Under the pieces are notes generated by a model. That model had not been told where the DNA came from. It worked only from the letters and a program-made list of their open reading frames with translations, and ran no database searches. DNA of 19,170 nt, taken from the NCBI RefSeq assembly GCF_003334255.1, contig NZ_QOWU01000071.1. One strand, written 5' to 3'. A program made the position numbers and the translations under genes. The first letter of the stretch is position 1. Each line of letters starts with the position of its first letter. The stretch comes from Escherichia coli. GTDB lineage: Bacteria > Pseudomonadota > Gammaproteobacteria > Enterobacterales > Enterobacteriaceae. Positions 297 to 18,579 of the stretch are shown one piece after another.

Positions 297-492
297 AATA
301 TCCGGGATATTGCAGGCAAATGTAGTCCATCTGCACCTTTGATGTGCAGTCCATCACCCGTTTAAACGCCTCCATGTAGTCATAACAGCCCTGCAATAAT
401 TGCGCGTCACCATCCTCAGTCAGAGGAAACCGGCTGGCGTAGTCATGAACTATTTTTGCCAGTTGTTGCTGCTCTGTGGTTAAGTCGATCAT
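292..492 (-). CDS. Hypothetical small protein (66 aa), translationally coupled downstream of tnpR
   Basis: ATGA start/stop overlap with tnpR (ATG at 492-490, tnpR stop at 491-489). Its stop codon lies inside the putative IS66 terminus, so the C-terminus may be altered. No family recognised. Confidence 0.45.
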   Translation of the reverse strand: MIDLTTEQQQLAKIVHDYASRFPLTEDGDAQLLQGCYDYMEAFKRVMDCTSKVQMDYICLQYPGYL

Positions 493-1064
493 TTTTGTCC
501 TCGTGAAAGCGTTCTATAAACTGTTGGCCGCGACACTGCGAACAGATCCGCCAGATCGCTGATCGAGTACTGGCCGGTTTCCCGCATGCGGCACAACTCT
601 TTTTGCTGCTTTTCAGACAGCTTAGGTTGTTTTCCCCGCAGTTTTCCCTTTGCCCGCGCAATCGCCATCCCTTCCCGGGTACGCAGACGTATCAGATCGC
701 CCTCAAACTCAGCAAAAGTGGCCAGCACATTGAAAAACATCTTCCCCACAGGGTCTGCTGGGTCGTAGAGACTGGTTCCCAGCGCCAGCTTCACACCCCT
801 GGCCTGTAGTGCATCCGCTATCTCACGTGCGTCAGGAACTGACCGCGCCAGACGGTCAAGCTTGGGAACAACCAGCGTGTCACCGCTGCGCACAGCGGCC
901 AGCGCCTGATCCAGTCCGGGCCGTTGCCGGTTTGAGCCGGTCAGCCCTTTATCAAGGTAAATCCGGTCCGGGGAGACGCCAAGTCTGACCAGCGTTTCCT
1001 GCTGTGCGGTTAAATCCTGTTTATCAGTAGAGCATCGGGCATACCCGATCCGTATTTCAGGCAT
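489..1064 (-). CDS. tnpR: Tn3-family serine recombinase (resolvase)
   Basis: 191 aa; N-terminal catalytic region IRIGYARCSTDKQDL, DRLARS motif, C-terminal helix-turn-helix (SISDLADLFAVSRPTVYR); divergent from tnpA as in Tn3-family transposons. Confidence 0.9.
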   Translation of the reverse strand: MPEIRIGYARCSTDKQDLTAQQETLVRLGVSPDRIYLDKGLTGSNRQRPGLDQALAAVRSGDTLVVPKLDRLARSVPDAREIADALQARGVKLALGTSLYDPADPVGKMFFNVLATFAEFEGDLIRLRTREGMAIARAKGKLRGKQPKLSEKQQKELCRMRETGQYSISDLADLFAVSRPTVYRTLSRGQK

Positions 1065-1212: not shown

Positions 1213-4200
1213 ATGACAACGCGTGGCAAAGCTACAGGCAAAAGTGAACGGCTGGCGGTTTTAAATAGCGCCGAGCAGGAGGCACTGTATGGTCTTCCTG
1301 ATTTCGATGATGCACAGCGACTGGAATTCCTGGCGCTGGAGGAATCAGAACTGGCGCTGGCCTGTAGTCGTCAGGGTCTTCACGCTCAAATTTATTGCAT
1401 CCTTCAGATCGCTTACTTTAAAGCCAAACACCTGTTTTTCCGCTTCGGATGGGGTGATGTTAAGGACGACAGTAACTTTGTGCTGAGCCGTTATTTTCAG
1501 GGTGAATCACTTCCGGAGCTGACTCTCACCAGGCACGAGCGCTATGCTCAACGCGAAAAAATCTGCTCACTGTACGGTTACCAACCGTGGTCATCTTCTC
1601 TGTCGCCACAGCTTGAACAGCAGGCAGCCAACATTGTTCACCGGGATGTAACCCCCGGCTTTGTTGCCACGGAGCTGATTATCTGGCTCAACGAACATAA
1701 AATTATCCGCCCCGGTTATACCACGCTTCAGGAGCTGGTAAGCCGGGTCCTTTCTGAAGAAAGGCAGCGTCTGGGACGTATACTGACGGAACAGCTTGAT
1801 GATGCAACTATTGCTGACCTGGGCAGACTGACTGAACGTGATGATACCCTTTCCCGGCTCGCAATCCTCAGGCAGGATGCGCGTGACTTTGGCTGGCGCC
1901 AGATGGTTCACGAACGGGAAAAGCGGGCTATCCTGGAGCCGCTGCACCATAAAGCCTGCGATATTTTGCCAGCACTGAATATTTCGCAGCAAAACCTGCT
2001 GTACTACGCCAGTCTGGCAAATTTCTATACCGTTTACGATCTCCGCAACCTGAAACCGGAGCAGACCCGCCTTTACCTGTTGTGTTATGCCTGGGTTCGC
2101 TATCGCCAGTTCAGTGACAACCTGGTGGATGCGATGTTTTTCCATATGAAACAGCTTGAGGATGAGAGCCGCAGCGTGGCCAGCCAACTCATGGCTGATA
2201 TGCAGGAAAAATACCGGCGCGAAACGTCTAAAATCGGGCGTCTGCTGTCGCTTTATGTTGATGACAGCGTTCCTGACCCCACCACCTTTGGTGAAGTCCG
2301 CCGCCGGGCCTGGAAAATAATGCCCAGGGAGACGCTGAAAACTACAGCACAACGTATGAGCGTGAAGCCCGTCAGCAGACTGGCGCTACAGTGGCAGGCC
2401 GTGGATGGCATGACGGCATTAATACGGCGTCACCTGCGACCATTATATCTTTCACTCGATCTCACCAGCGTGGTCCGGGACAGCCCGTGGGCAGAGGCGC
2501 TTAACTGGCTCAGAACGGTGTTCAGCAAAAAACAGACGCTTTTGCAGCGGCCACTTGAGGAGTGCCCGCAGGTAACGTTACCTGCGCGGCTGCGCCCGTA
2601 CCTGCTGGAATTCGGTGAGGATGGTGAGCCCACAGGCCTGAATGCCGGGCGTTATGAGTTCTGGCTCTATCGTCAGATAAGAAAGCGTTTTCAGGCGGGA
2701 GAATTCCACCTCAATAATAGCCTCCGGCACCGCCATCTTTCTGATGAACTGGTACCGGAAGGGGAACAGGCCACAGTGCTGGCTGAAATGAACATCCCGT
2801 TCCTGCAGAAGCCCATTAAAACACAGCTAAAAAAACTGGCATCCGAGCTGCACCGACAGTGGAAAGTGTTTAACCGTGAGCTGAAACAGGGGAAACTGAA
2901 ACATCTGGAATACGATAAAGAAACGCAGAAGCTGACCTGGCATAAATCGGTGGCCAGCCGTTATAAGTCGCAGAATAAGCGTTTTTATGAGCAACTGCCA
3001 TTCTGCGATGTGACCGACGTCTTCCGCTTTGTTAACGGGCAGTGTCGATTTCTTCCCGCCATGAAGCCGCTGCAACCCCGTTACGCCAAAAAAGAAGCTG
3101 ATGTAGACAGTCTGATGGCGGTCATCGTTGCCCAGGCGATGAACCATGGCAACCATGTGATGGCGCGAACCAGCGATATACCATTCCATGTGCTGGAGAC
3201 CACGTACGAACAGTACCTTCGTCTGGCGTCTCTGCTCACGGCCAATGACTGTATAACCGATGCTATAGAAGCGCTACCGGTTTTTCCGCTCTATTCGTTT
3301 GATCCGGAGACGCTTTATGGAGCTGTTGACGGGCAAAAATTTGGTGTTGAACGTCCGACAGTGAAAGCACGGTATTCACGTAAATATTTTGGTCGTGGTA
3401 AAGGCATGGTGGCCTACACGCTGCTGTGCAACCACATTCCAGTCAACGGATACCTGATTGGCACAAACGACTACGAAGGCCATCATGTATTTGACATCTG
3501 GTACCGCAATACCTCAGCAGTGAAACCCACGGCCATTACCGGTGACATGCACAGCATCAACAAAGCCAACTTTGCGATCCTGCACTGGTTTGGCCTTCGC
3601 TTTGAACCCCATTTTACTGGCCTTAACAAACAACTTCAGGAACTGTACTGCACCAGAGACACGTCAGCATATAAAAAATGCCTGATCCAGCCTGCCGGTC
3701 AGATTGACCTGGACCTTATCACCCGCGAAAAAAGTAATCTTAATCGCATCGTCGCTACGCTGGGGCTAAAAGAAATGACGCAGGGAACGCTGATCCGTAA
3801 GTTATGTACATATACTACGGCCAGCCCGACAAGACAGGCGGTATTTGAATACGATCGGCTGGTTCGCAGCATTTACACGCTGAAGTATCTGCGTGACCCG
3901 CAACTGGAACGCAATATCCGTCGTTCCCAGAACCGCATTGAATCTTATCACCAGCTGCGTGCAGCAGTCGCCAAAGTCGGCGGCAAGAAGGAGTTAACAG
4001 GGAAAAATGACATTGAAACGGACATCAGTAATCAGTGCGGACGGTTGATCTCCAACGCGATCGTTTATTACAACTCCGCGATCCTGTCACGGTTACTGGA
4101 ACGGCTGGAAGCCGAAGGTAACGAAAGGGGCATAGAGACTCTGACCCGGATATCGCCGGTGGCCTGGCAGCACATTTTGCTGAACGGGCATTATACATTT

Positions 4201-4260
4201 CAGAACACTAATGAAATTATTGACCTGGATGCTCTGGTTGTCGGACTAAAACTGGGGTAA
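1213..4260 (+). CDS. tnpA: Tn3-family DDE transposase
   Basis: 1015-aa ORF, the typical size for Tn3-family TnpA; stop codon lies inside the terminal inverted repeat as in Tn3. Confidence 0.92.
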   Translation: MTTRGKATGKSERLAVLNSAEQEALYGLPDFDDAQRLEFLALEESELALACSRQGLHAQIYCILQIAYFKAKHLFFRFGWGDVKDDSNFVLSRYFQGESLPELTLTRHERYAQREKICSLYGYQPWSSSLSPQLEQQAANIVHRDVTPGFVATELIIWLNEHKIIRPGYTTLQELVSRVLSEERQRLGRILTEQLDDATIADLGRLTERDDTLSRLAILRQDARDFGWRQMVHEREKRAILEPLHHKACDILPALNISQQNLLYYASLANFYTVYDLRNLKPEQTRLYLLCYAWVRYRQFSDNLVDAMFFHMKQLEDESRSVASQLMADMQEKYRRETSKIGRLLSLYVDDSVPDPTTFGEVRRRAWKIMPRETLKTTAQRMSVKPVSRLALQWQAVDGMTALIRRHLRPLYLSLDLTSVVRDSPWAEALNWLRTVFSKKQTLLQRPLEECPQVTLPARLRPYLLEFGEDGEPTGLNAGRYEFWLYRQIRKRFQAGEFHLNNSLRHRHLSDELVPEGEQATVLAEMNIPFLQKPIKTQLKKLASELHRQWKVFNRELKQGKLKHLEYDKETQKLTWHKSVASRYKSQNKRFYEQLPFCDVTDVFRFVNGQCRFLPAMKPLQPRYAKKEADVDSLMAVIVAQAMNHGNHVMARTSDIPFHVLETTYEQYLRLASLLTANDCITDAIEALPVFPLYSFDPETLYGAVDGQKFGVERPTVKARYSRKYFGRGKGMVAYTLLCNHIPVNGYLIGTNDYEGHHVFDIWYRNTSAVKPTAITGDMHSINKANFAILHWFGLRFEPHFTGLNKQLQELYCTRDTSAYKKCLIQPAGQIDLDLITREKSNLNRIVATLGLKEMTQGTLIRKLCTYTTASPTRQAVFEYDRLVRSIYTLKYLRDPQLERNIRRSQNRIESYHQLRAAVAKVGGKKELTGKNDIETDISNQCGRLISNAIVYYNSAILSRLLERLEAEGNERGIETLTRISPVAWQHILLNGHYTFQNTNEIIDLDALVVGLKLG

Positions 4261-5420: not shown

Positions 5421-6293
5421 TCAGGGTGAGGCAGTGGCCAGCCGTGTGTAGTTGTTGTTCCGCGACATTATCATGCGCTCCTTCACGCGACGGTCGATTT
5501 CGCGCTTCACGGCTTCCAGGCTTCCCCGGAAACGCCCTTCCGCAATTTCACGCGTCAACTGCCGTTTCACCAGGGTGACAATGTCCTGACGGGTCCGGCC
5601 CGCATCACGGCGCGCACGGGCACGTTTCATGCCGTGGGCCTTGCGCTCTGCCTGGTAACTGCGGAAACGCTCGCGCACAAAACGCCAGGCTCTCGCTATC
5701 AGTTCATCCATACCCAGCGCATCCAGCCCCTGCTTTTTGCGCAGCTTGTTTTCCCATTCCACGCGGCTGCGGCGTGCGGAAGCCACCGCCTCTTCAGAGA
5801 TATCGAGTGAGGCAAACAGTGCCGGCGTGAACGTGATGTCGGTCGGAATGTTACAGCCAATTGTCGGGTCGTATTCCGTCTGGTAGGTCATCAGCCCCAG
5901 CTCAGCCAGGAACTTCAGGGCACGGGTGGCACGGGTGATGGAGAGTTTCCCGGCCTCAGACTCCGTCGCCAGTCCGCACTCAATGGCCAGCGTGGTGATG
6001 GAGCACTGCACGCGGTTGGCCAGCGGGTCATAGTGGAAACACAGCCCCTGCAGCAGCGCATCAATCGCCCTTCGGCGCAGCACTGGCGGCATACGCCGGC
6101 GCAGGCCGCGCGAACGTGCATACGCCACATGCGCGGCAAAATCAAAACGGGAGGTGAAGCCCACGGCCTTTTCCATCAGTTTTTCGCAGAACTTCAGCGT
6201 TCCGGCATCTTCACGGGGTGTGAAGACCGGATTCGGGTTCTTTACCTGACGGTATGTGCTTTCAGTAAATGAGGTCTGGTTCAGGGCCGCCAC
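5421..6293 (-). CDS. repA: IncFII-type replication initiator RepA (RepA1)
   Basis: 290 aa; [86 protein letters not shown] and the C-terminus RLATASP match R1/R100 RepA1 as I recall it, along the whole length. GTG start. Confidence 0.92.
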
Positions 6294-6370
6294 AAGCTGT
6301 CGCTTATGGCGGGCACAGAATGCCGTGCGTTAATGCACTGCAAGGGGTTGAATCTCTGACACGGTTTCAT
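6281..6370 (-). CDS. Leader-peptide ORF (29 codons) overlapping the repA start (tap/repA6-like)
   Basis: ATG at 6370-6368; stop TGA at 6283-6281 lies 10 nt inside repA, as in IncFII translational coupling. Peptide sequence itself not recognised. Confidence 0.4.
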
Positions 6371-6456
6371 ATATACTTATCCCGTATTCTGTGAGGCCCC
6401 CACTATCTTTCTTGAGCCCGCCAAAGTTCATCGAAAGATAGTGGGGGTTTTCCTTT
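6365..6456 (+). ncRNA. CopA-like antisense RNA (5' end uncertain)
   Basis: Plus-strand hairpin with 15-bp stem CCCCCACTATCTTTC/GAAAGATAGTGGGGG (6396-6447) followed by TTTTCCTTT; antisense to the tap start/RBS region. Possible -35 TTGAAT (6348-6353) and -10 TATACT (6372-6377). Confidence 0.45.
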
Positions 6457-7129
6457 ATGGTCTTCTGAAACTTTTTTCAGCCTTCCGGCCCCGGCAAACA
6501 GCCGTCGTTTCTGCCATACATCCTGAATGCCTTATGGCGCATCCTGCCGTTTTCTGACTTTCCGGATCGCGAGGATCCCAAAAGCCACTGCATAACGATC
6601 CGCAATATACCTCGTTTCCACCGCTTTGAAAAGCCGACATGATTTCTCAGGGTTACAGTTGCCCTCTTTAACTCCCCGAAAAAGCGTCGTTTTTTTGAAC
6701 TCTGTCAAAAAAATGAACAATTCCGCAAACGATCTTTTATGCTGTGTTTTTCATCATTTTTAGTAGAAGAGATCGCGTTATTTTTTTAAACGATCTAATC
6801 GTCCACAAATCGCATTTGACTCAGAACAATATACTGCTTTATTTGATGTAACAATCTATTCAACTGCTTATTTGGACTATTGCCACATATGCAACCTTGT
6901 GTAGCATGTTTATCAGCCATTAATCCTGTTTGGGTAATTGGCAGTTTTCGCCCGCCTCGAAACTGTCAAAAAGGCTTACAAGAGTGCACAACGCATGTGC
7001 CTGTCAGAACTGCAGGCCGGGCTGAACGAGGGTCAGCCGCTGTTTCCGACACATGCTTTATGTATTCGCCGTTCACAACAACATCGAAGCCCCCCTGCGG
7101 GGATCGATTTTCGCGGAGCGTTCCGGATT

Positions 7130-7636
7130 TTGAATATCAGTGAATTACATCAACGCAACTGGTATCTGGCACAGTACATTGCTGCCGGTAAAAATCGCGA
7201 ACATCTCTTTTCCTGGCTTTCCGAACAACACGTCCTTCCCTGGACACCCCTGATACTGAAAAAGGTCCGCCGTACGGATAAAGTCTGTGGTTACCGTCGT
7301 CATATACACGCCGTGTTTCCCGGTTACTTCTTCCTGAAAGCAGACCCCGAACGCCACGCTTTCACTCACCTGCGCCGTCACAGTGCCTTTCTGGACTTCG
7401 TGAAAATGGCCGGTGAAATCAAAACCGTCAGGGAGGATATCGTTCAGTCCCTGATGAAAGTGTACCCGGATCCTGCGCTCAATCCGGCAGCCAGGGAGGA
7501 GCTGGATGCTGCCTCCACCCTCTGGCTGACAAAAGCGCGTTACCAGTACCTCCTCCGGCTTGATGCACAGCCTCTGCCGGAGTCGAGGATCGCCCTGCTC
7601 CTGCACCTGGTATCTGATGACGGAGCGTTGACATGA
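7130..7636 (+). CDS. NusG/RfaH-paralog (NGN domain) transcription antitermination-like protein; start codon uncertain
   Basis: NWYLAQY...HAVFPGYFFLKADPE...SAFLDFVKMAG aligns by eye with the RfaH N-terminal domain (WYLLYC...EPLFPNYLFVEFDPE...VSHFVRFG). The ORF is open from 6938 (TTG); 7130 TTG follows a GGAG at 7115-7118. No clear KOW motif in the C-terminal part. Confidence 0.65.
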   Translation: MNISELHQRNWYLAQYIAAGKNREHLFSWLSEQHVLPWTPLILKKVRRTDKVCGYRRHIHAVFPGYFFLKADPERHAFTHLRRHSAFLDFVKMAGEIKTVREDIVQSLMKVYPDPALNPAAREELDAASTLWLTKARYQYLLRLDAQPLPESRIALLLHLVSDDGALT

Positions 7637-7663
7637 AAATTGCTGTCTTCATTTGACGACTTT

Positions 7664-7690
7664 CCCGGCCTTTATGGCCGGGCTTTTTTT
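7664..7690 (+). terminator. Intrinsic terminator T1
   Basis: CCCGGCC-TTTAT-GGCCGGG followed by CTTTTTTT. Confidence 0.55.
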
Positions 7691-7696
7691 CCCCAA

Positions 7697-7752
7697 TGCC
7701 CGGCACCGGTGACACCTGCGTGTACGGAGAGCGGCTGCCGGGCATTTTTTTT
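7697..7752 (+). terminator. Intrinsic terminator T2 (long hairpin with 9-bp closing stem) immediately upstream of the next RBS
   Basis: TGCCCGGCA ... TGCCGGGCA followed by eight T; ends 1 nt before the AGGA RBS of the gene at 7765. Confidence 0.5.
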
Positions 7753-7764
7753 CAGGACATCGTT

Positions 7765-8280
7765 ATGACCATTCAATCCCCGGAAAACCCTGTCATTCAG
7801 TTACTGGAGAATATGCTTGAAGCGCTCTCCACCTCCCCGGACAGCATCAACAATGAACGACGTCGCCGGCGCTTCCTGCTGAACTGGCTTGATTCCGCCC
7901 GACAGATGAGTGAGTTCAGGGGGATGCCTGAAGAGTTCACCGCCCTGCGCAAACTGCTGGCCACCAATACGGACATACCGGTAGAGAACACGCTGAAATC
8001 ACTGCTGGAAAGTGGCCACAACGCAGCACTGTATGACCTGTACCGCTTCCGAGCAGCGCTTGCCACGTGCAGGAGTCTGGGATGGCAGATTGGCACGTGC
8101 GCATGGAATGACCAGTTACTGAGTGAGACACTTTCCCGCGCACAGACCGGGAAACGTCATATCCTGCAGCTGAACAGCACCGGGGACACCTTTTCCACCA
8201 CGGGCAGAATGATCAGACCGGTGGCATTTTCATTAATCCATCCGGCCACCATCAACACGTCTGAGGTTGAAGAGATATGA
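7765..8280 (+). CDS. Hypothetical soluble protein (171 aa)
   Basis: ATG at 7765 with AGGA 8 nt upstream; longer ORF from 7696 rejected because its start lies inside terminator T2. ATGA overlap with the next gene. Confidence 0.6.
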   Translation: MTIQSPENPVIQLLENMLEALSTSPDSINNERRRRRFLLNWLDSARQMSEFRGMPEEFTALRKLLATNTDIPVENTLKSLLESGHNAALYDLYRFRAALATCRSLGWQIGTCAWNDQLLSETLSRAQTGKRHILQLNSTGDTFSTTGRMIRPVAFSLIHPATINTSEVEEI

Positions 8281-8810
8281 CCGGCATTGGTAACTGGATA
8301 GTCAGCGTGCTGATTGGATATGCTGCTGGCCCCCTGTGGGCTGCCACCCACCTGGGAACAAGCCAGGACCGGGGAAGCCGGGCCGCTTACGGTTACATCT
8401 ACCTGATAGACAGCATGATCAGACCGCTGGTGATGGTATTCGGGTTCTTTTTTGCATCGGTCTCCATCGTGGCCGGCGGCACCATTCTGAATGCGTTGTT
8501 TGGCGCGGCTCTGGTTAATGTGCAGGCGGACTCCCTTACGGGGTTATTCAGCATCGCTGGATTTTTGCTGATTTATGCCCGAGTCTGTACCACGCTGGTT
8601 GCGGCCGTTTTTGCGCTTCAGGCTTATCTGCCTGACCATGTGATTAATTTTCTGGGCGGACGTGACGGCGTTAATATGCTGGGGAATATGGCATCTTCGG
8701 TCAAAGATATTATTGCTGGCGGAAATACCAATATGCGCAGAACACCTGGCGTACGTGAAGAAAAACTGAAAAATATTAAAGGAGATGATAAAGACGGAAT
8801 AAAACAATAA
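8277..8810 (+). CDS. Hypothetical integral membrane protein (177 aa)
   Basis: Several hydrophobic segments (IVSVLIGYAAGPLWAA, LVMVFGFFFASVSIVAGGTILNALFGAAL, LFSIAGFLLIYARVCTTLVAAVFAL), hydrophilic lysine-rich tail; coupled to upstream gene. Confidence 0.6.
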   Translation: MTGIGNWIVSVLIGYAAGPLWAATHLGTSQDRGSRAAYGYIYLIDSMIRPLVMVFGFFFASVSIVAGGTILNALFGAALVNVQADSLTGLFSIAGFLLIYARVCTTLVAAVFALQAYLPDHVINFLGGRDGVNMLGNMASSVKDIIAGGNTNMRRTPGVREEKLKNIKGDDKDGIKQ

Positions 8811-8850
8811 AATGAAAATATCTAAAAACCAATAAAACAGTATTGCCATA

Positions 8851-8884
8851 TTCACCTGAAGAGATTAAAATATACTCAGGTGAA
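8851..8884. promoter_or_regulatory. Perfect 9-bp inverted repeat (TTCACCTGA / TCAGGTGAA) flanking a TATACT element just upstream of the RBS of the 8899 gene
   Basis: Seen directly; candidate operator or leader hairpin. Confidence 0.3.
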
Positions 8885-8898
8885 TATGGAGGTTTATT

Positions 8899-9546
8899 AT
8901 GAGTACAACAAAAAACAGATATCCTTCCTGGTGGGCATATTATTACCTTGTTCGCAATGCGTATTTCATATTTGGCATACCATGCTTATTATTTTATGCT
9001 TTTTTCGGAACACTAATTGTTCATGATTCAGCCTTATCTCAAACAATGGATTTTGTTTTTGCATATGGATGCTGGGCATTAATAATTATCCCATTACTCT
9101 GGCTATATCTGAGAACCAGAGCGAAGAAAAAGAAAGTCCTGCAGGTTGTTCAGCAGATAAAAGAAAGCAGTCTCTTTGCGCCGACCAGCGATTATGAGCA
9201 ACTGTCATTCTCGAAGAGTTGTTATTTCGGGATCGACATTAAAAACGGCACCATGCTGTATGTGCGTATTTATCCAAACAATGTGATGGATGTGATTGGT
9301 CTGGATATTCACAACTTTACCCGCACGGTTGCTGAGGACGGCAAACTGGAAATCCATACCACCTATGTGAGTCTTCCGATGATCCCACTGGAAATCTCCG
9401 GCATCTCATCAAGGACGCTGGCCAACACCATGCACACCATGGCTGCACGTGGATATGAGTACAAGGAACGTTTCCCGCAGATGATCCGGTATCGGGTTAA
9501 AGAGTGGGAAAAAGTTGCCGGTGTACCTGTTGCAGAAGTGTTTTAA
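8899..9546 (+). CDS. Hypothetical membrane-anchored protein (215 aa); AT-rich
   Basis: GGAGG 8 nt upstream of ATG; two N-terminal hydrophobic helices then a soluble domain; last 35 codons duplicated downstream. Confidence 0.6.
   Translation: MSTTKNRYPSWWAYYYLVRNAYFIFGIPCLLFYAFFGTLIVHDSALSQTMDFVFAYGCWALIIIPLLWLYLRTRAKKKKVLQVVQQIKESSLFAPTSDYEQLSFSKSCYFGIDIKNGTMLYVRIYPNNVMDVIGLDIHNFTRTVAEDGKLEIHTTYVSLPMIPLEISGISSRTLANTMHTMAARGYEYKERFPQMIRYRVKEWEKVAGVPVAEVF
9433..9546 (+). repeat. Direct repeat copy 1 (3' end of the 215-aa gene)
   Basis: About 110 bp near-identical to 9938-10051. Confidence 0.8.
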
Positions 9547-9562
9547 GACGGTTATCTCATAC

Positions 9563-9591
9563 ATCCGGTTCATCTGAACCGGATTTTCTTT
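9563..9591 (+). terminator. Intrinsic terminator after the 215-aa gene
   Basis: ATCCGGTTCA-TC-TGAACCGGAT followed by TTTCTTT. Confidence 0.5.
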
Positions 9592-9614: not shown

Positions 9615-9824
9615 TTATCGATAAAGTCGCCCAAGAGCCTTGATAGCTGCAACTTTAATTTCCATATCATCACTTTCACTTAATCTACGTAATTCCCTCT
9701 TTATGTTATCTGCCTGGCATCGACCTTCACCTAATGCATAGATCACAGCAAGTGTAACGTCTTTTGATTTATCCTTCATCATTTCAAACAAGAAAGTATT
9801 AGCTATCGCAGGAGACATACTCAT
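9615..9824 (-). CDS. Small hypothetical protein (69 aa), AT-rich, helical-repeat-like
   Basis: Strong RBS (AGAGGA, 8-nt spacer); sequence ...AAIKALGRLYR resembles a single HEAT/PBS-type repeat, tentative. Confidence 0.5.
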   Translation of the reverse strand: MSMSPAIANTFLFEMMKDKSKDVTLAVIYALGEGRCQADNIKRELRRLSESDDMEIKVAAIKALGRLYR

Positions 9825-10083: not shown

Positions 10084-10114
10084 AGCCGGTTTTCTCTGAA
10101 CCGGCTTTTTCTTT
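10084..10114 (+). terminator. Intrinsic terminator after the orphan module
   Basis: AGCCGGTT-TTCTCTG-AACCGGCT followed by a T-run. Confidence 0.5.
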
Positions 10115-10206: not shown

Positions 10207-10488
10207 ATGCCATCTGCAACACAAACTGCCCGACTGGAAGCAAGAATCAGCACAGAACTGCATGCTATGCTGAAACGCGCTGCAGAAATCCAGGGACGCA
10301 CTATGACCGATTTTATCATTTCTGCCGTTCAGGATGCGGCACAACGCGCTATAGAACAAACCGATATCATCCGACTGTCCCGGACAGATCAGGAAATTTT
10401 TGCTCAGGCATTACTGTCACCAACAGAACCTAATGATGCGCTCAAACGGGCCTTTAAACGCCGTAATAATATTCTATACACAAAATAA
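10207..10488 (+). CDS. DUF1778-type (ribbon-helix-helix) antitoxin of a GNAT toxin
   Basis: 93 aa; AGGAGG RBS; ...LEARISTELHAMLKRAAEIQGRTMTDFIISAV... is typical of TacA/KacA-type antitoxins; immediately upstream of the GNAT gene. Confidence 0.85.
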   Translation: MPSATQTARLEARISTELHAMLKRAAEIQGRTMTDFIISAVQDAAQRAIEQTDIIRLSRTDQEIFAQALLSPTEPNDALKRAFKRRNNILYTK

Positions 10489-10493
10489 ATATA

Positions 10494-10982
10494 ATGTTTC
10501 AGCTGAAACCATTTAACAGCACATATGACAGAACCTCATTTTTATGTGGTTCTGATGCTCTGGACCGTTATATAAAAGAGCATGTCACACAGGATATTCG
10601 ACGACGCATCGCGGCCTGCTTTGTTGCTATAGATAACGATCATCGTATCATCGGATACTATACGTTATCAGCGGCCAGTATATTATTAACTGACTTACCT
10701 GAGCATTTGAGAAAAAAGCTACCACGATATCCTACCATCCCGGCTATTCGTATGGGACGCCTGGCAGTAAGTCTGTCATCAAAAGGAACAGGACTTGGTG
10801 GGACACTTTTAGCTGATGCGCTATATCGTGCATACACATCTGAAATTGCAGCATATGCGCTGATTGTTGATGCAAAAGATGACACGGCAGTCTCATTTTA
10901 CAAACATTATGGATTTATGACGCTCCCGGAGTCAGGGCGAACTTTATTCATGCCACTGGCATCATTATCTGCAATAGAATAA
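10494..10982 (+). CDS. GNAT-family acetyltransferase toxin (TacT/KacT/AtaT-type)
   Basis: 162 aa acetyltransferase fold (…RMGRLAVSLSSKGTGLGGTLLADAL…FYKHYGFM…), 5 bp after the antitoxin stop. Confidence 0.85.
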   Translation: MFQLKPFNSTYDRTSFLCGSDALDRYIKEHVTQDIRRRIAACFVAIDNDHRIIGYYTLSAASILLTDLPEHLRKKLPRYPTIPAIRMGRLAVSLSSKGTGLGGTLLADALYRAYTSEIAAYALIVDAKDDTAVSFYKHYGFMTLPESGRTLFMPLASLSAIE

Positions 10983-11553
10983 CCAGAATAAATCCGGGTA
11001 AAAAAGGGCGCATTGAGGTCAGCCTTCGCAACAATCCGGCGGCAGATTCCCTGCCGCCGTGTTGCCCGTTAACGTTTAACTTCGTAGGCTAACGTTGCCA
11101 CAAGCACCGTATTTCCCTGCTCGATACGAAATCCGCAAAGCGAATCCCTCACCATCCAGACAAAACACAGTATCGTCACACAGAGGACAATTAACATTGT
11201 TAAAAACGTTCGTTGTAGCATCGCAGCCCCTCCATTGCCTTTCGGCCGTTATCGGGCTACTATAATGTTGTCTAGGCATTACAGTAGAGCCCTGGGTTGA
11301 TTGATAAAAAAATCGCCTGGGGCTTCTGCTACATGCCGTCCACAAAACGCTTTCGGCATACAGCCTCAAGCGCCCGCAGCTATTCTAATCGTTTTTCAGT
11401 CTGCCACAATCGTTTTCCATCTAATGACATGTAATGCGCAACGGTATTTTTACGGGAAACAACACGGCAAGGATTCCCGGAACACGTCCATTATTTTATG
11501 GTTACGGACATCATGTTAAATCAGAAAGTAATAATGACCTGAAAGGAAATGGT

Positions 11554-11888: not shown

Positions 11889-13436
11889 TTATTTTTCTGA
11901 TTCAGCATTTCCGGTCAGTACAGGCTCTTCTGGCAAAGACATTACCGGAACGTCACGTTCGCCATTGAATACAGAAACACTTTCGGTGAAACCATTCTGT
12001 AACAAAGAAAAACTTAACGGCAGATTTTTGGTTTGTATCCCTGTGATCCATTGAAAAATCTCGGGAAAACGACGGGCGCTGATATGCACATGATTGAGGC
12101 GGTGCTCAGTAATATCACTTGCCATCATCATGAGAGGCACATCGTATCCCGAACGCAAACCTGGCGCATGATGCACAGGGGTGCTGTCTGAACTGACGGA
12201 TTGCCCATGATCAGAAAAATACAGCATGGCAAAATCATCGCCATGCTCTGTCGTCATGTTATAAATTGCCTGAAGAAACCGATCCAGCTTAAGCAATGTT
12301 GATAAATAACAGGATACTTTATTTCCGAATAATTCCCTGAACGGCTGTGCATCATTAAAAAGTCTGTCACAGGGATTAGGATGGGATCCCAGCATATGAA
12401 TGAAAATCACTTTTGGAGAAGACGAATTAACAGCTTCCCTGACATACTGAAGCATATCTTCATCATCAATGCGACGGGAAGAAGAGTTCCCTTCCTTAAG
12501 AAAATATTTCTTATCCGCACTGGCGGCGATGACAGAAATCAGCGTATCATGTCGCCCTAAAGAGCCCTGATTTGATATCCACCACGTTTCATATCCGGCT
12601 TTTCTGGCAAGCGTAACAATATTATTACCCGGATTACCTGTTTCAGTGTAATCAAGAGTCAGTGTTCTGCTGAGTGAACCTGTCGTATTCGGAGCAGCGG
12701 AGAAATACCCATTAATAAATATACCCGGAGCAGAGTTCAGCCATGGTGTTGTCGGCAAAGGATACCCATAAACAGAAAGATAATCCCGTCTGACACTTTC
12801 ACCAATTACGATAATTATAGTTTTATATTTCTTCTCCACACTCACAATATCCCATGAGTCTTTCTGATTGTTTTTCAGCGATTCATATCGCATCATTTCT
12901 TCTCTGGTTTCAGCTATCCCCGTTATTACATTCGTAACCATACGTTTTGGCCATGCATTTACTGACAATACGATAAAGAACAACAGAAAGATAAATCCCC
13001 GGTGGCTTTTTTCACGCTTACGCCAGAACCAGAATGTAAAAGCAGCAATGACCAGTGAAACAATAAAATAAAAAACAGGTATGCCTGTGATAAATTCACC
13101 TGCCTCATTTATATTTGTCTGCATTACAGACGCAATAAAACTGTTGTTTATTTTTCCGTAAATCATTCCAACCGGAGCATAGAATGCACTTAACAAAAGA
13201 AAGATACAGACACACGTCGCTGAAATAACATTCCGCCGCCCCAACGACATCATCAGGAACAATATAAGTACATTCCCTGTGGCGTTTTTCACTGTATATC
13301 CGCAGCACCATGTAACAAGTACAGAAAACAACAGATAAATCAGTGACTCTTTACACCACAACATAAAATAAAACTGTTTTGCCATCTCAAAAGCACATTT
13401 GGATTTTTCTTTAATACGAGACACGCCAGTCATTTT
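11889..13436 (-). CDS. Phosphoethanolamine-transferase-like membrane enzyme (sulfatase/alkaline-phosphatase superfamily, EptA/MCR/OpgE-like); start uncertain
   Basis: N-terminal hydrophobic helices followed by a catalytic domain with IIIVIGESVRRDYLSVYGYP, KVIFIHMLGSHPNP and AMLYFSDHGQS, resembling the VVGETARADHVSFNGY / MLHQMGNHGP / MLYVSDHGES blocks of MCR/EptA. AT-rich. ORF open to 13445 (TTG); first ATG at 13436. Confidence 0.75.
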   Translation of the reverse strand, partial: KMTGVSRIKEKSKCAFEMAKQFYFMLWCKESLIYLLFSVLVTWCCGYTVKNATGNVLILFLMMSLGRRNVISATCVCIFLLLSAFYAPVGMIYGKINNSFIASVMQTNINEAGEFITGIPVFYFIVSLVIAAFTFWFWRKREKSHRGFIFLLFFIVLSVNAWPKRMVTNVITGIAETREEMMRYESLKNNQKDSWDIVSVEKKYKTIIIVIGESVRRDYLSVYGYPLPTTPWLNSAPGIFINGYFSAAPNTTGSLSRTLTLDYTETGNPGNNIVTLARKAGYETWWISNQGSLGRHDTLISVIAASADKKYFLKEGNSSSRRIDDEDMLQYVREAVNSSSPKVIFIHMLGSHPNPCDRLFNDAQPFRELFGNKVSCYLSTLLKLDRFLQAIYNMTTEHGDDFAMLYFSDHGQSVSSDSTPVHHAPGLRSGYDVPLMMMASDITEHRLNHVHISARRFPEIFQWITGIQTKNLPLSFSLLQNGFTESVSVFNGERDVPVMSLPEEPVLTGNAESEK

Positions 13437-13591
13437 CCTGTACAAAAACAGACAATCATTTCAACGCATGGATATTTATATGAAACAGCTCACAAAAATA
13501 CCCTGCTCTGTCTAGCAAGATTACATATTATCAGGTTTTGTGTTTACAGCAACTGCTCCCCGGACCAGATTATTCGCATAACCCGATGAAT

Positions 13592-17534: not shown

Positions 17535-17621
17535 GTCAGTTATAGACAGTTATCTTCCGGTCAGGGCTACCAAGTTCGATCCGGAATCGTAAAAAAACCG
17601 GCCTCACCAGTCGGTTTTTTT
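17535..17621 (+). ncRNA. Candidate antitoxin small RNA, copy A
   Basis: Sigma70-like promoter TTGCAG-17 nt-TATTAT (17500-17528); intrinsic terminator ACCGGC-CTCACCA-GTCGGT plus seven T (17597-17621). 5' region 17535-17551 is a direct repeat of 17348-17364, hence complementary to the peptide mRNA leader. Confidence 0.4.
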
Positions 17622-17878
17622 ACATCTGTATATATCTGCTCCGGACTGCGCCCTGAGTCTCCCGTTGAAAATTGCCTTTTGAATTTTACGAAATACGGCA
17701 AATGGTGGATGGATGTCGAATATATTTCCAGGGGAGTTCCGGGGAAAAGCCGGCTCATGTTTGACTCACGGGAACAGACGCTGGAAGTGCAGAAAGATTT
17801 TCGATTTTTAACCTGAGCATATTTTGTTAAAGGGCAGAAGACGGTGACCCTCTGCCCTTAAGTACGTTTCCGGGATTA

Positions 17879-18279: not shown

Positions 18280-18366
18280 GTTAGTTGAAAAGAGACTTCC
18301 TCCGGGCCAGAGCCACCAACTCTCCCTGGGATCGCAAAAAAGCCGGCCTCACCAGTCGGCTTTTTT
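18280..18366 (+). ncRNA. Candidate antitoxin small RNA, copy B
   Basis: Promoter-like TTGCGA-17 nt-TATTCT (18245-18273); terminator GCCGGC-CTCACCA-GTCGGC plus T-run (18341-18366). 18286-18305 is a direct repeat of 18052-18071 in the copy-B peptide leader. Confidence 0.35.
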
Positions 18367-18579
18367 GTGCCTGTCTCTCACCACCTTCTGCTGTTCCTGT
18401 GAAAATGCCCTGCTGAATTCATCCCTGCCCGGTCATTACCGGCGATTGTTCGTATTCATTCCACTCAGCCTCATCACGAAATTAATCCATTTATCTATGG
18501 AGGAATCCCCGTGTCTTACCAACAGACGTCTGCCAGTGAAGCACCAACAGAGATTTGGTATATCGTCGGTATCATATGC

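Follow-up and report, generated by a model that had tools for sequence, protein, structure and literature searches.

The 19,170-nucleotide stretch of Escherichia coli DNA analysed here (contig NZ_QOWU01000071.1, hereafter the window) carries, divergent from the replication gene repA, a gene for a NusG/RfaH paralog which is followed by two tandem terminator-like hairpins and three further open reading frames. The question raised by this locus is which genes such a dedicated paralog would serve and by what means. The initial annotation had read the arrangement as one of processive antitermination, in which a three-gene operon of unknown function is switched on by the protein with the NusG N-terminal (NGN) domain. 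We found that the paralog is the long-known TraB, that the locus belongs to an I-complex (IncK2/Z) plasmid which has lost its conjugation machinery and represents the regulatory, rep-proximal end of what was the transfer region, and that the three open reading frames were brought together by a deletion; these gene identities and the deletion are, taken jointly, practically beyond doubt. The best explanation of the locus as a whole, which we hold to be probable, is that TraB would load at a conserved leader upstream of its own gene and suppress termination at the two hairpins, in a plasmid that has lost its transfer genes.

Identity of the plasmid and of the NusG paralog

Megablast of the window against plasmids gave approximately 1,700 records, the closest of which were E. 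coli plasmids typed as IncK2/Z, members of the I-complex. Positions 6300–8278 correspond to the IncK2/Z repA-traB-traC segment and positions 8277–9547 to the 3' end of traY with excA. The placement of repA as divergent from the paralog gene proved correct (5421–6293, minus strand); its product is a replication initiator of the IncFII family/I-complex, which far exceeded the cutoffs of both NCBIfam PRK13750 (592 bits) and TIGR03474 (564 bits), and next to it lies the PK-repZ pseudoknot RF01087 (6306–6455, minus strand, 162 bits), a translational control element of the I-complex replicon. The traB-traC module of the window adjoins this replicon and points away from repA, and the usual gene order in IncK2/Z plasmids is repA, the NusG-family gene, traC, two accessory genes and then the pil genes. 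The traB-traC transfer-control module of I-complex plasmids is an already known locus.

The paralog gene, traB (7130–7636, plus strand), encodes a 168-residue protein made up of an NGN domain and a C-terminal region of about 60 residues. Residues 10–108 matched Pfam PF02357 (NusG) with an E value of 9.6e-5, confirming the NGN domain, and the protein is 64% identical to IncI1 TraB over 163–168 residues, as an ortholog would be. It was present in more than 500 plasmid records at 95–99% identity and is 48–54% identical to homologs from Yersinia, Erwinia and Citrobacter. Among profiles of solved structures in the PDB the best relative was IncX3 PrfaH (9ik0, E 2e-12) followed by E. coli RfaH (E ~1e-4, full length), and a Foldseek search placed RfaH structures at the top (5ond and 8pen, E 3e-8) with PrfaH ninth, so that the initial assignment as an RfaH-like NusG paralog is borne out by the Pfam NusG match, the PrfaH/RfaH profiles and the fold comparison. 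The protein nevertheless scored below the equivalog cutoffs of RfaH (NF006534, 39 versus 124 bits; TIGR01955, 36.7 versus 144.5 bits) and below that of LoaP (NF033641, 23.2 versus 125 bits). In an AlphaFold2 (AF2) model built from eight sequences the NGN domain had a predicted local distance difference test (pLDDT) score of 70–83, and the C-terminal region was helical with a pLDDT below 50. The C-terminal segment PESRIALLLHLV aligns weakly to GEARSMLLLNLI of RfaH, and it is here that AF2 places low-confidence helices.

The gene had at first been given a start at TTG 6938, which had to be abandoned, as a 94%-identical relative has an in-frame stop 46 codons upstream of the conserved start and other lineages close the frame 17, 11 or 2 codons upstream of it. 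The start common to all lineages lies at TTG 7130; the relatives have GTG or ATG in the aligned position. Judged from the sequence, ATG 6995 is a possible start in the IncK clade only, where the frame stays open.

The traABCD regulatory region of the IncI1 plasmid R64 was reportedly described by Kim, Funayama and Komano in 1993 (J Bacteriol 175:5035). Both traB and traC are needed for conjugation in R64, pESBL and the I-complex plasmid pMS7163B (PMC10286972, PMC4288162, PMC5801416), and the TraB orthologs of R64 and pESI are positive regulators of transfer genes (PMC5013300, PMC10286972, PMC5801416); deletion of traB from pESI lowered pil transcripts 4-fold and abolished transfer (PMC5013300). 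IncX3 PrfaH is essential and binds positions −42 to −25 of its own gene on the non-template strand; R64 TraB is named in the same work as a homolog (PMC11880322). Plasmid NusG paralogs have been proposed to act on tra operons by antitermination, with experimental assessment awaited (PMC7593976). The antitermination idea fits this current thinking on plasmid NusG paralogs and is not new.

Genes downstream of the terminators

The three open reading frames behind the hairpins lie where they had been placed (7765–8280, 171 residues; 8277–8810, 177 residues; 8899–9546, 215 residues), as does the terminator-like hairpin which follows them. The first, traC' (plus strand), is traC cut after codon 171 of 220: its product is 100% identical to residues 1–171 of the 220-residue TraC of CP088704.1. 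It is without the conserved motifs EGFQVV and RTLHIG.P.LP..W and without the last two long β-strands (residues 178–202) of the C-terminal domain, as located in an AF2 model of TraC (pLDDT 91), and a full-length TraC ortholog is therefore not what lies directly downstream of traB. The 171-residue form was present in ENA assemblies too (P0006, 98% identical). TraC itself belongs to a small family, of which an exhaustive search gave 93 representatives and a word-index search the close relatives only; the IncK2/Z protein had no Pfam or NCBIfam match, distant homologs are annotated as DUF2913, and the window TraC is 38–39% identical to IncI1 TraC.

The second and third proteins had been described as not recognisable, and a profile hidden Markov model search identified both of them above cutoff. 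The second, 'traY (plus strand), is a remnant consisting of the last 177 codons of a DotA/TraY gene and opens at an internal Met codon of traY; its product scored 135.5 bits with TIGR04346 (DotA_TraY) over profile positions 526–656 of 656 only, that is, as a C-terminal part and not as a full-length member, and its DNA is approximately 96% identical to the 3' end of traY of IncK2/Z plasmids. The third, excA (plus strand), is an intact gene for the IncI1-type surface exclusion protein (NF033891, 267.8 bits against a cutoff of 100, residues 3–211 on profile positions 2–210 of 210). It has a promoter-like site of its own at 8843–8871 (10 of 12 positions matched), and the intrinsic-terminator-like hairpin 3' of it spans 9563–9590 on the plus strand (hairpin 9563–9584, −14.0 kcal/mol).

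A three-way alignment located the deletion junction at 8277–8278, where traC (...GAGATAT) meets traY (ATGACCGG...) with a 2-nucleotide microhomology, AT. Homology to the repA-traB-traC side ends at 8278 in all megablast records but five, and homology to the DotA/TraY 3' end and excA begins at 8277 in approximately 460 records. By comparison with CP088704.1 about 44.3 kb is missing: the rest of traC from codon 172 on, pil, rci, sog, traE-traX and the front part of traY. Behind traB-traC the pil and tra (MPF_I) genes are thus absent, since the junction leads into the 3' end of traY. The same junction occurs in five plasmid records, one of which (H1) is typed as mobilizable and not conjugative, while traB-traC followed by pil genes is found in approximately 1,700 plasmids.

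That these genes form a functional three-gene operon switched on by the NGN protein had in its favour that they share one strand, the stop and start codons of the first two overlap at 8277–8280 and a terminator stands behind the third. The overlap, however, is created by the deletion junction itself, the open reading frames are a truncated TraC, a C-terminal fragment of TraY and ExcA, and the junction is found in 5 plasmids against approximately 1,700 with traB-traC-pil. The traY and excA homology, the NCBIfam matches and the junction alignment refute this reading, and we regard it as hardly credible. Because the deletion of about 44.3 kb of pil and tra genes joined traC' to 'traY, the three genes are a deletion scar and not a natural operon. 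The natural targets of TraB, the pil and tra genes, are missing from this plasmid, and the regulator survives without its regulon.

Terminators between traB and traC

The two consecutive hairpin/U-tract terminators reported behind the NGN gene were confirmed by folding energies and a shuffle test. T1 (7664–7690, plus strand, −15.9 kcal/mol) is an intrinsic-terminator-like hairpin CCCGGCC/GGCCGGG with a stem of 7 bp, all GC, at 7664–7682, followed by seven U residues up to 7690. T2 (7696–7752, plus strand, −27.8 kcal/mol) is a long hairpin with a basal stem of 10 bp (7696–7705 with 7736–7745), further inner pairs and a U run to 7752. The region 7630–7770 folds better than 200 of 200 dinucleotide shuffles (z = −2.86). 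As had been noted, T2 ends 1 nucleotide ahead of the ribosome-binding site of the next gene, with the Shine-Dalgarno sequence AGGA at 7754–7757 and the traC start codon ATG at 7765. No promoter-like site was found in the traB-traC spacer between 7600 and 7765, and T1 and T2 are separated in the window lineage by a gap of 13 nucleotides. Since T2 ends at the ribosome-binding site and this interval holds no promoter-like site, traC has no visible transcription route except read-through.

To compare this spacer among relatives we used ten lineages, whose TraB proteins are 48–98% identical: IncK2/Z, an IncK1-like hybrid, two IncI1 plasmids, Yersinia ruckeri pYR4, Pluralibacter, Erwinia, Citrobacter, one further Enterobacterales isolate and a small IncI1-typed plasmid. 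T1 was compared by per-sequence folds; the MAFFT alignment was out of structural register. A T1-like GC hairpin with a U run was present just past traB in all ten lineages, with stems that vary (CCCGGCC, CCCCGGT, CCCCCGG, CCCCC), and for this reason we treat T1 as a stable feature of the family. The second hairpin differs from group to group. The IncK spacer contains T1 and T2 only; that of IncI1 contains an extra large hairpin in addition to T2 with its U run, and approximately 150 nucleotides more between T1 and T2. Both the IncK and the IncI1 T2 stems are followed by 6–8 U. In five lineages the spacer forms a 16-bp long stem around a three-way junction, with compensatory changes and no U run. 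To the eye, the basal stem of T2 (ATGCCCGGCA/TGCCGGGCAT) is similar to the lowest part of the Y. ruckeri stem (GATGCCGGCA/TGCCGGCATTC). From these sequence comparisons T2 appears to be a lineage-specific terminator version of a conserved stem which always abuts the traC ribosome-binding site. Rfam gave no family for T2, either at the gathering thresholds or at E values up to 5, where the sub-threshold matches were set off by the T1 hairpin only.

The spacer structure of the non-IncI lineages measures approximately 125 nucleotides (L007 3084–3212, L015 3095–3222, L017 3082–3200, L019 3106–3232) and has a conserved TGGCGGA just ahead of its 3' arm; the window has only a shortened form of it, T2. 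In the intact IncK2/Z relative one more terminator-like site on the plus strand lies just ahead of pilI.

A conserved structured leader upstream of traB

The sequence ahead of the NGN gene had been described as a long AT-rich leader, and this holds for positions 6650–6935, which are 64% A+T, and fails for 6936–7130, which are 46% A+T and contain a conserved structured element. The element is a leader of approximately 149 nucleotides (6978–7126, plus strand) and was the sole match in the window to a covariance model, R1 (53.5 bits, E ~1e-11), which had been built from eleven Yersinia-like and metagenomic sequences and contained no IncI or IncK sequences; extra lineages were gained by a DNA-pattern scan of metagenome contigs. 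Its parts are a long irregular hairpin (P1/P2) with an invariant internal loop UCWGAAYU at 7004–7011, a small hairpin CCCC-UGC-GGGG and a 3' box GCGGGGATCGATTTTCGCGGAGCGTT at 7097–7122, with GCGGGGATCGATTTTCGCGGAGCG at 7097–7120. In the RNAalifold structure the long irregular hairpin (P1, P2a, P2b) is arranged around a variable hairpin and is followed by the small hairpin and the box. Spacing within the box varies, and a fixed-spacing pattern failed. Lineages with TraB proteins only about 50% identical share the non-coding blocks ACAAGAGT, CTGTCWGAAYTGCAG, CTGYTTCMG and TATTCG, and a further common block is an invariant GGATC followed by GCG(G/A)AGCG. The leader was found upstream of traB in every lineage but one, and no Rfam family matches it.

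Covariation was measured on an R1 alignment of 25 sequences, in which 92% of cells were paired and 16 of the 30 pairs change on both sides. Cells with double changes numbered 76, compared with 30 in shuffles, and none of 500 shuffles reached the score; when partners were slid as a control, pairing fell to only 34–48%. G-U pairs are frequent in the helices, which suggests pairing of RNA rather than DNA. The leader was also considered as coding sequence, a peptide such as MCLSELQ being possible in some lineages, and rejected: the start codons are not conserved, the lineages differ in frame through indels of 1–2 nucleotides, a stop comes early in IncI1 and the helices covary.

The distribution of the leader extends beyond traB. 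In 48.8 kb of R64, R1 found three copies and no more, which lie on the tra strand before traA, traB and traH (L142, minus strand: traA 48467–48612, traB 47404–47547, traH 26907–27053). The copies at traA and traH each have a terminator-like hairpin at their end, with the GCGGAGCGTT box as its 5' arm. The traH copy, which is the most abundant variant in gut metagenomes, sits at the 5' end of the mRNA, as it follows an extended −10 sequence (TGATATACT). In 66 kb of the intact IncK2/Z relative R1 found one copy, and no second copy was found by blastn or R1; nor did R1 match the IncX3 locus or lineage L008. The relatives from Yersinia, Erwinia and Citrobacter have a single copy.

The 3' box spans −33 to −8 with respect to the start codon; the IncX3 PrfaH site, TCGGGGTCATCCGAGTCGAGAGAGCG, has been mapped to a comparable position, and the two sequences are alike in part. 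On these sequence features we tentatively propose that the leader could be the TraB loading site, an equivalent of ops, with loading either as non-template DNA or as nascent RNA. No firmer is the wider proposal that it is an undescribed cis element which would mark each TraB/TraC-dependent unit, where the factor, possibly with TraC, would load ahead of an attenuating terminator. The leader and its distribution are the only part of this locus that may be new.

Between the replicon and traB lies an A+T-rich, GATC-rich control region (6540–6935), which contains a sigma-70-like promoter site, TTGCCA-16-TAGCAT, at 6880–6907 (TTGCCA-16-TAATAT in the relative). Six GATC (Dam) sites fall within 290 nucleotides (6565, 6574, 6597, 6731, 6771 and 6792), the densest group in the window; the cluster (6540–6830), which lies between the replicon and the leader, often takes the form of AACGATCT repeats, and comparable clusters were seen in IncI1, IncK1-like, L008 and metagenomic lineages (L003 100–160; L005 2960–3010). 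In position the GATC-rich stretch corresponds to the Hft region of the IncI1 plasmid pESBL, which controls transfer (PMC4288162). Just upstream of the leader there is also a conserved CCGCC box, at 6946–6963 in the window (TTCGCCCGCCTCGAAAC), at approximately 2325–2345 in L007 and at 48620–48649 in R64, where it makes up the loop of a 13-bp hairpin. Its version in Yersinia-like lineages, CTACCGCCAAGAG, is ops (GGCGGTAG) in reverse complement and thus lies on the wrong strand.

Proposed mechanism and alternative explanations

The order of promoter-like site, leader, traB, T1, T2 and traC' fits the anatomy of an antitermination unit, and the NusG paralog and the two terminators before the next gene are the parts of the initial proposal which stand, the operon of unknown function under NGN control being the part which does not. 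We envisage that transcription would start, probably near the sigma-70-like promoter at 6880–6907, and proceed through the leader and traB, and that the transcript would have to cross T1 and T2 to reach traC. TraB would board RNA polymerase at the leader and give a termination-resistant elongation complex which reads through T1 and T2. In intact plasmids this read-through would carry transcription into traC and the downstream pil and tra genes, and in R64 the separate leader copies would extend the switch to traA and to traH-traY. With traB placed behind its own loading site and ahead of the terminators, the arrangement would constitute a positive feedback loop, as in IncX PrfaH. In the present plasmid the switch would be left with a truncated TraC, and it may also let some transcription run on into the traY remnant and excA. 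Processive antitermination by TraB is a plausible mechanism; it has been shown for IncX PrfaH, and we lean towards the view that TraB acts in this way at T1 and T2.

Several observations weigh against this explanation. The covariation of the leader comes from an alignment fitted to the model and from approximately 7–8 independent lineages. The ops element (GGCGGTAG), which the initial annotation had also sought in vain, is absent from the plus strand of the window and from the tra-strand leaders of the relative, and GGCGG.AG patterns gave nothing on the sense strand near the locus. The start-adjacent box has GGAG/GAAG, so it may, on its sequence, serve or also serve as a ribosome-binding region. 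The intact IncK2/Z relative has one leader copy and has minus-strand genes inside the pil/tra region, and for both reasons a single loading event may be insufficient for the transfer genes as a whole. The second terminator does not occur throughout: its counterpart in Yersinia-like lineages has no U run, and lineage L008 has T1 alone and lacks a detectable leader as well. In TraB the C-terminal region is not recognisable as a KOW domain and was modelled with low confidence, and ribosome coupling of the RfaH kind is for that reason unsupported. Expression of pESBL traB is governed at initiation, through TraA and 54 bp of upstream sequence (PMC5801416). Finally, we found no test of termination or read-through by an IncI-type TraB in the searchable literature.

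Part of this evidence would be accommodated if T1 and T2 simply ended and insulated the traB transcript, with traC and the transfer genes on promoters of their own and TraB (with TraC) activating them otherwise, for example at initiation or by countering silencing by H-NS/Rho. The control of pESBL traB through TraA and promoter-proximal sequences upstream would agree with this (PMC5801416), as would the L008 spacer, the promoter-like sites ahead of pilI in the intact relative and the additional 150 nucleotides or so between T1 and T2 of IncI1, which could hold a promoter. In the window lineage, however, the 13-nucleotide gap, the position of T2 at the traC ribosome-binding site and the want of a promoter-like site at 7600–7765 leave little room for it; traC is needed for transfer of related plasmids (PMC10286972), and the closest characterised paralog, PrfaH, helps polymerase past a termination signal (PMC11880322). 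We therefore consider insulation improbable.

A different account would have T2 work chiefly at the RNA level rather than as a terminator, for instance by way of RNase III, by affecting stability or by gating the translation of traC, and would make TraC, TraA, a small RNA or Hfq, and not TraB, the partner of the leader. It draws on the homologous 16-bp stem of the Yersinia, Erwinia and Citrobacter lineages, which covaries without a U run, on the constant place of the second hairpin directly upstream of the traC ribosome-binding site, on the G-U pairs of the leader helices and on preliminary effects of hfq on traA and traBC in pESBL (PMC5801416). It is less easily squared with the 6–8 U behind the IncK and IncI1 stems, a hallmark of intrinsic terminators, or with the likeness of the leader 3' box, in position and partly in sequence, to the mapped single-strand DNA site of PrfaH. 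As a replacement for TraB loading and antitermination we find this account doubtful; it is compatible with that explanation and does not exclude it.

Other features of the window

The hairpin behind excA has a similar terminator-like counterpart further along the plus strand (ATCCGGTTCATCTGAACCGGAT at 9563–9584 and AGCCGGTTTTCTCTGAACCGGCT at 10084–10106), and the two flank a small minus-strand open reading frame (9615–9824) which carries a HEAT-repeat annotation in relatives. Between excA and hok lies a pair consisting of a DUF1778 antitoxin-like gene (10207–10488, plus strand) and a GNAT acetyltransferase-like gene (10494–10982, plus strand), which is not annotated at that place in CP088704.1. 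The sok antisense RNA of the hok/sok system is at 11219–11375 (minus strand). A phosphoethanolamine transferase-like gene (518 residues; 11889–13445, minus strand) scored far under all NCBIfam cutoffs, those of the MCR families included, and is a backbone gene in intact IncK2/Z plasmids too. Two AgrB-type antisense RNAs (17536–17623 and 18281–18368, plus strand) adjoin DinQ-like dqlB toxin genes. To the left of the replicon there is a serine resolvase gene (489–1064, minus strand) and a Tn3-family transposase gene (1213–4260, plus strand, 762 bits).

Significance

The plasmid belongs, as a non-conjugative derivative, to a common family of resistance plasmids, and its supposed operon of unknown function is the scar left by a deletion. 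The I-complex plasmids (IncI1, IncK, IncB/O and IncZ) are major carriers of extended-spectrum β-lactamase and AmpC genes, and traBC is essential for their spread. In one survey 45% of the plasmids with an annotated nusG-family gene were I-complex plasmids, the largest group (PMC11880322). Together with its three R64 copies and the terminators that follow them, the leader provides a testable candidate for the TraB loading site and for the terminators which TraB would overcome. If the proposed explanation is correct, the IncX PrfaH mechanism would extend to the largest group of plasmid NusG paralogs and would offer a target for blocking plasmid transfer.

Comparison with known systems

The closest known system is traABCD of R64 (IncI1), which occupies the same place between the replicon and the pil/tra genes and has, as in the window, T1 and T2 between traB and traC and the leader before traB. 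The IncK2/Z lineage differs from R64 in having no traA or traD, one leader copy instead of three and no 150-nucleotide insert between T1 and T2, and the window plasmid differs further in its truncated traC and in the deletion of the pil/tra genes up to the end of traY. In IncX plasmids the gene for PrfaH (ActX; PDB 9ik0) heads the transfer region, as traB does, and the PrfaH site lies in the 5' untranslated region of its own gene; the candidate site in the window is likewise placed, at most about 45 nucleotides from the start codon, with a partial likeness of the form GGGG(A)TC...CG(A/G)GAGCG. The two proteins are, however, only about 28% identical over the NGN domain, R1 does not match the IncX3 locus and IncX has no TraC partner.

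RfaH of Enterobacteriaceae shares the NGN fold with TraB and gives a weak full-length profile alignment which reaches the end of the C-terminal domain, but the TraB locus has no sense-strand GGCGGTAG, the RfaH score is 39 bits against the required 124, and the C-terminal region, modelled with low confidence, is not recognisable as a KOW domain. RfaH controls long horizontally acquired operons, the F tra operon included (PMC7593976), whereas TraB is plasmid-borne and encoded beside its target. In the case of LoaP and UpxY, NusG paralogs of Firmicutes and Bacteroides, the regulator gene heads the operon that it serves and the unit contains terminators. A structured leader RNA is required by LoaP. 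The UpxY partner protein is reported to be encoded by the next gene (PMC11213015), as TraC is by the gene behind traB; that partner, UpxZ, is an inhibitor and TraC, in contrast, is required for transfer.

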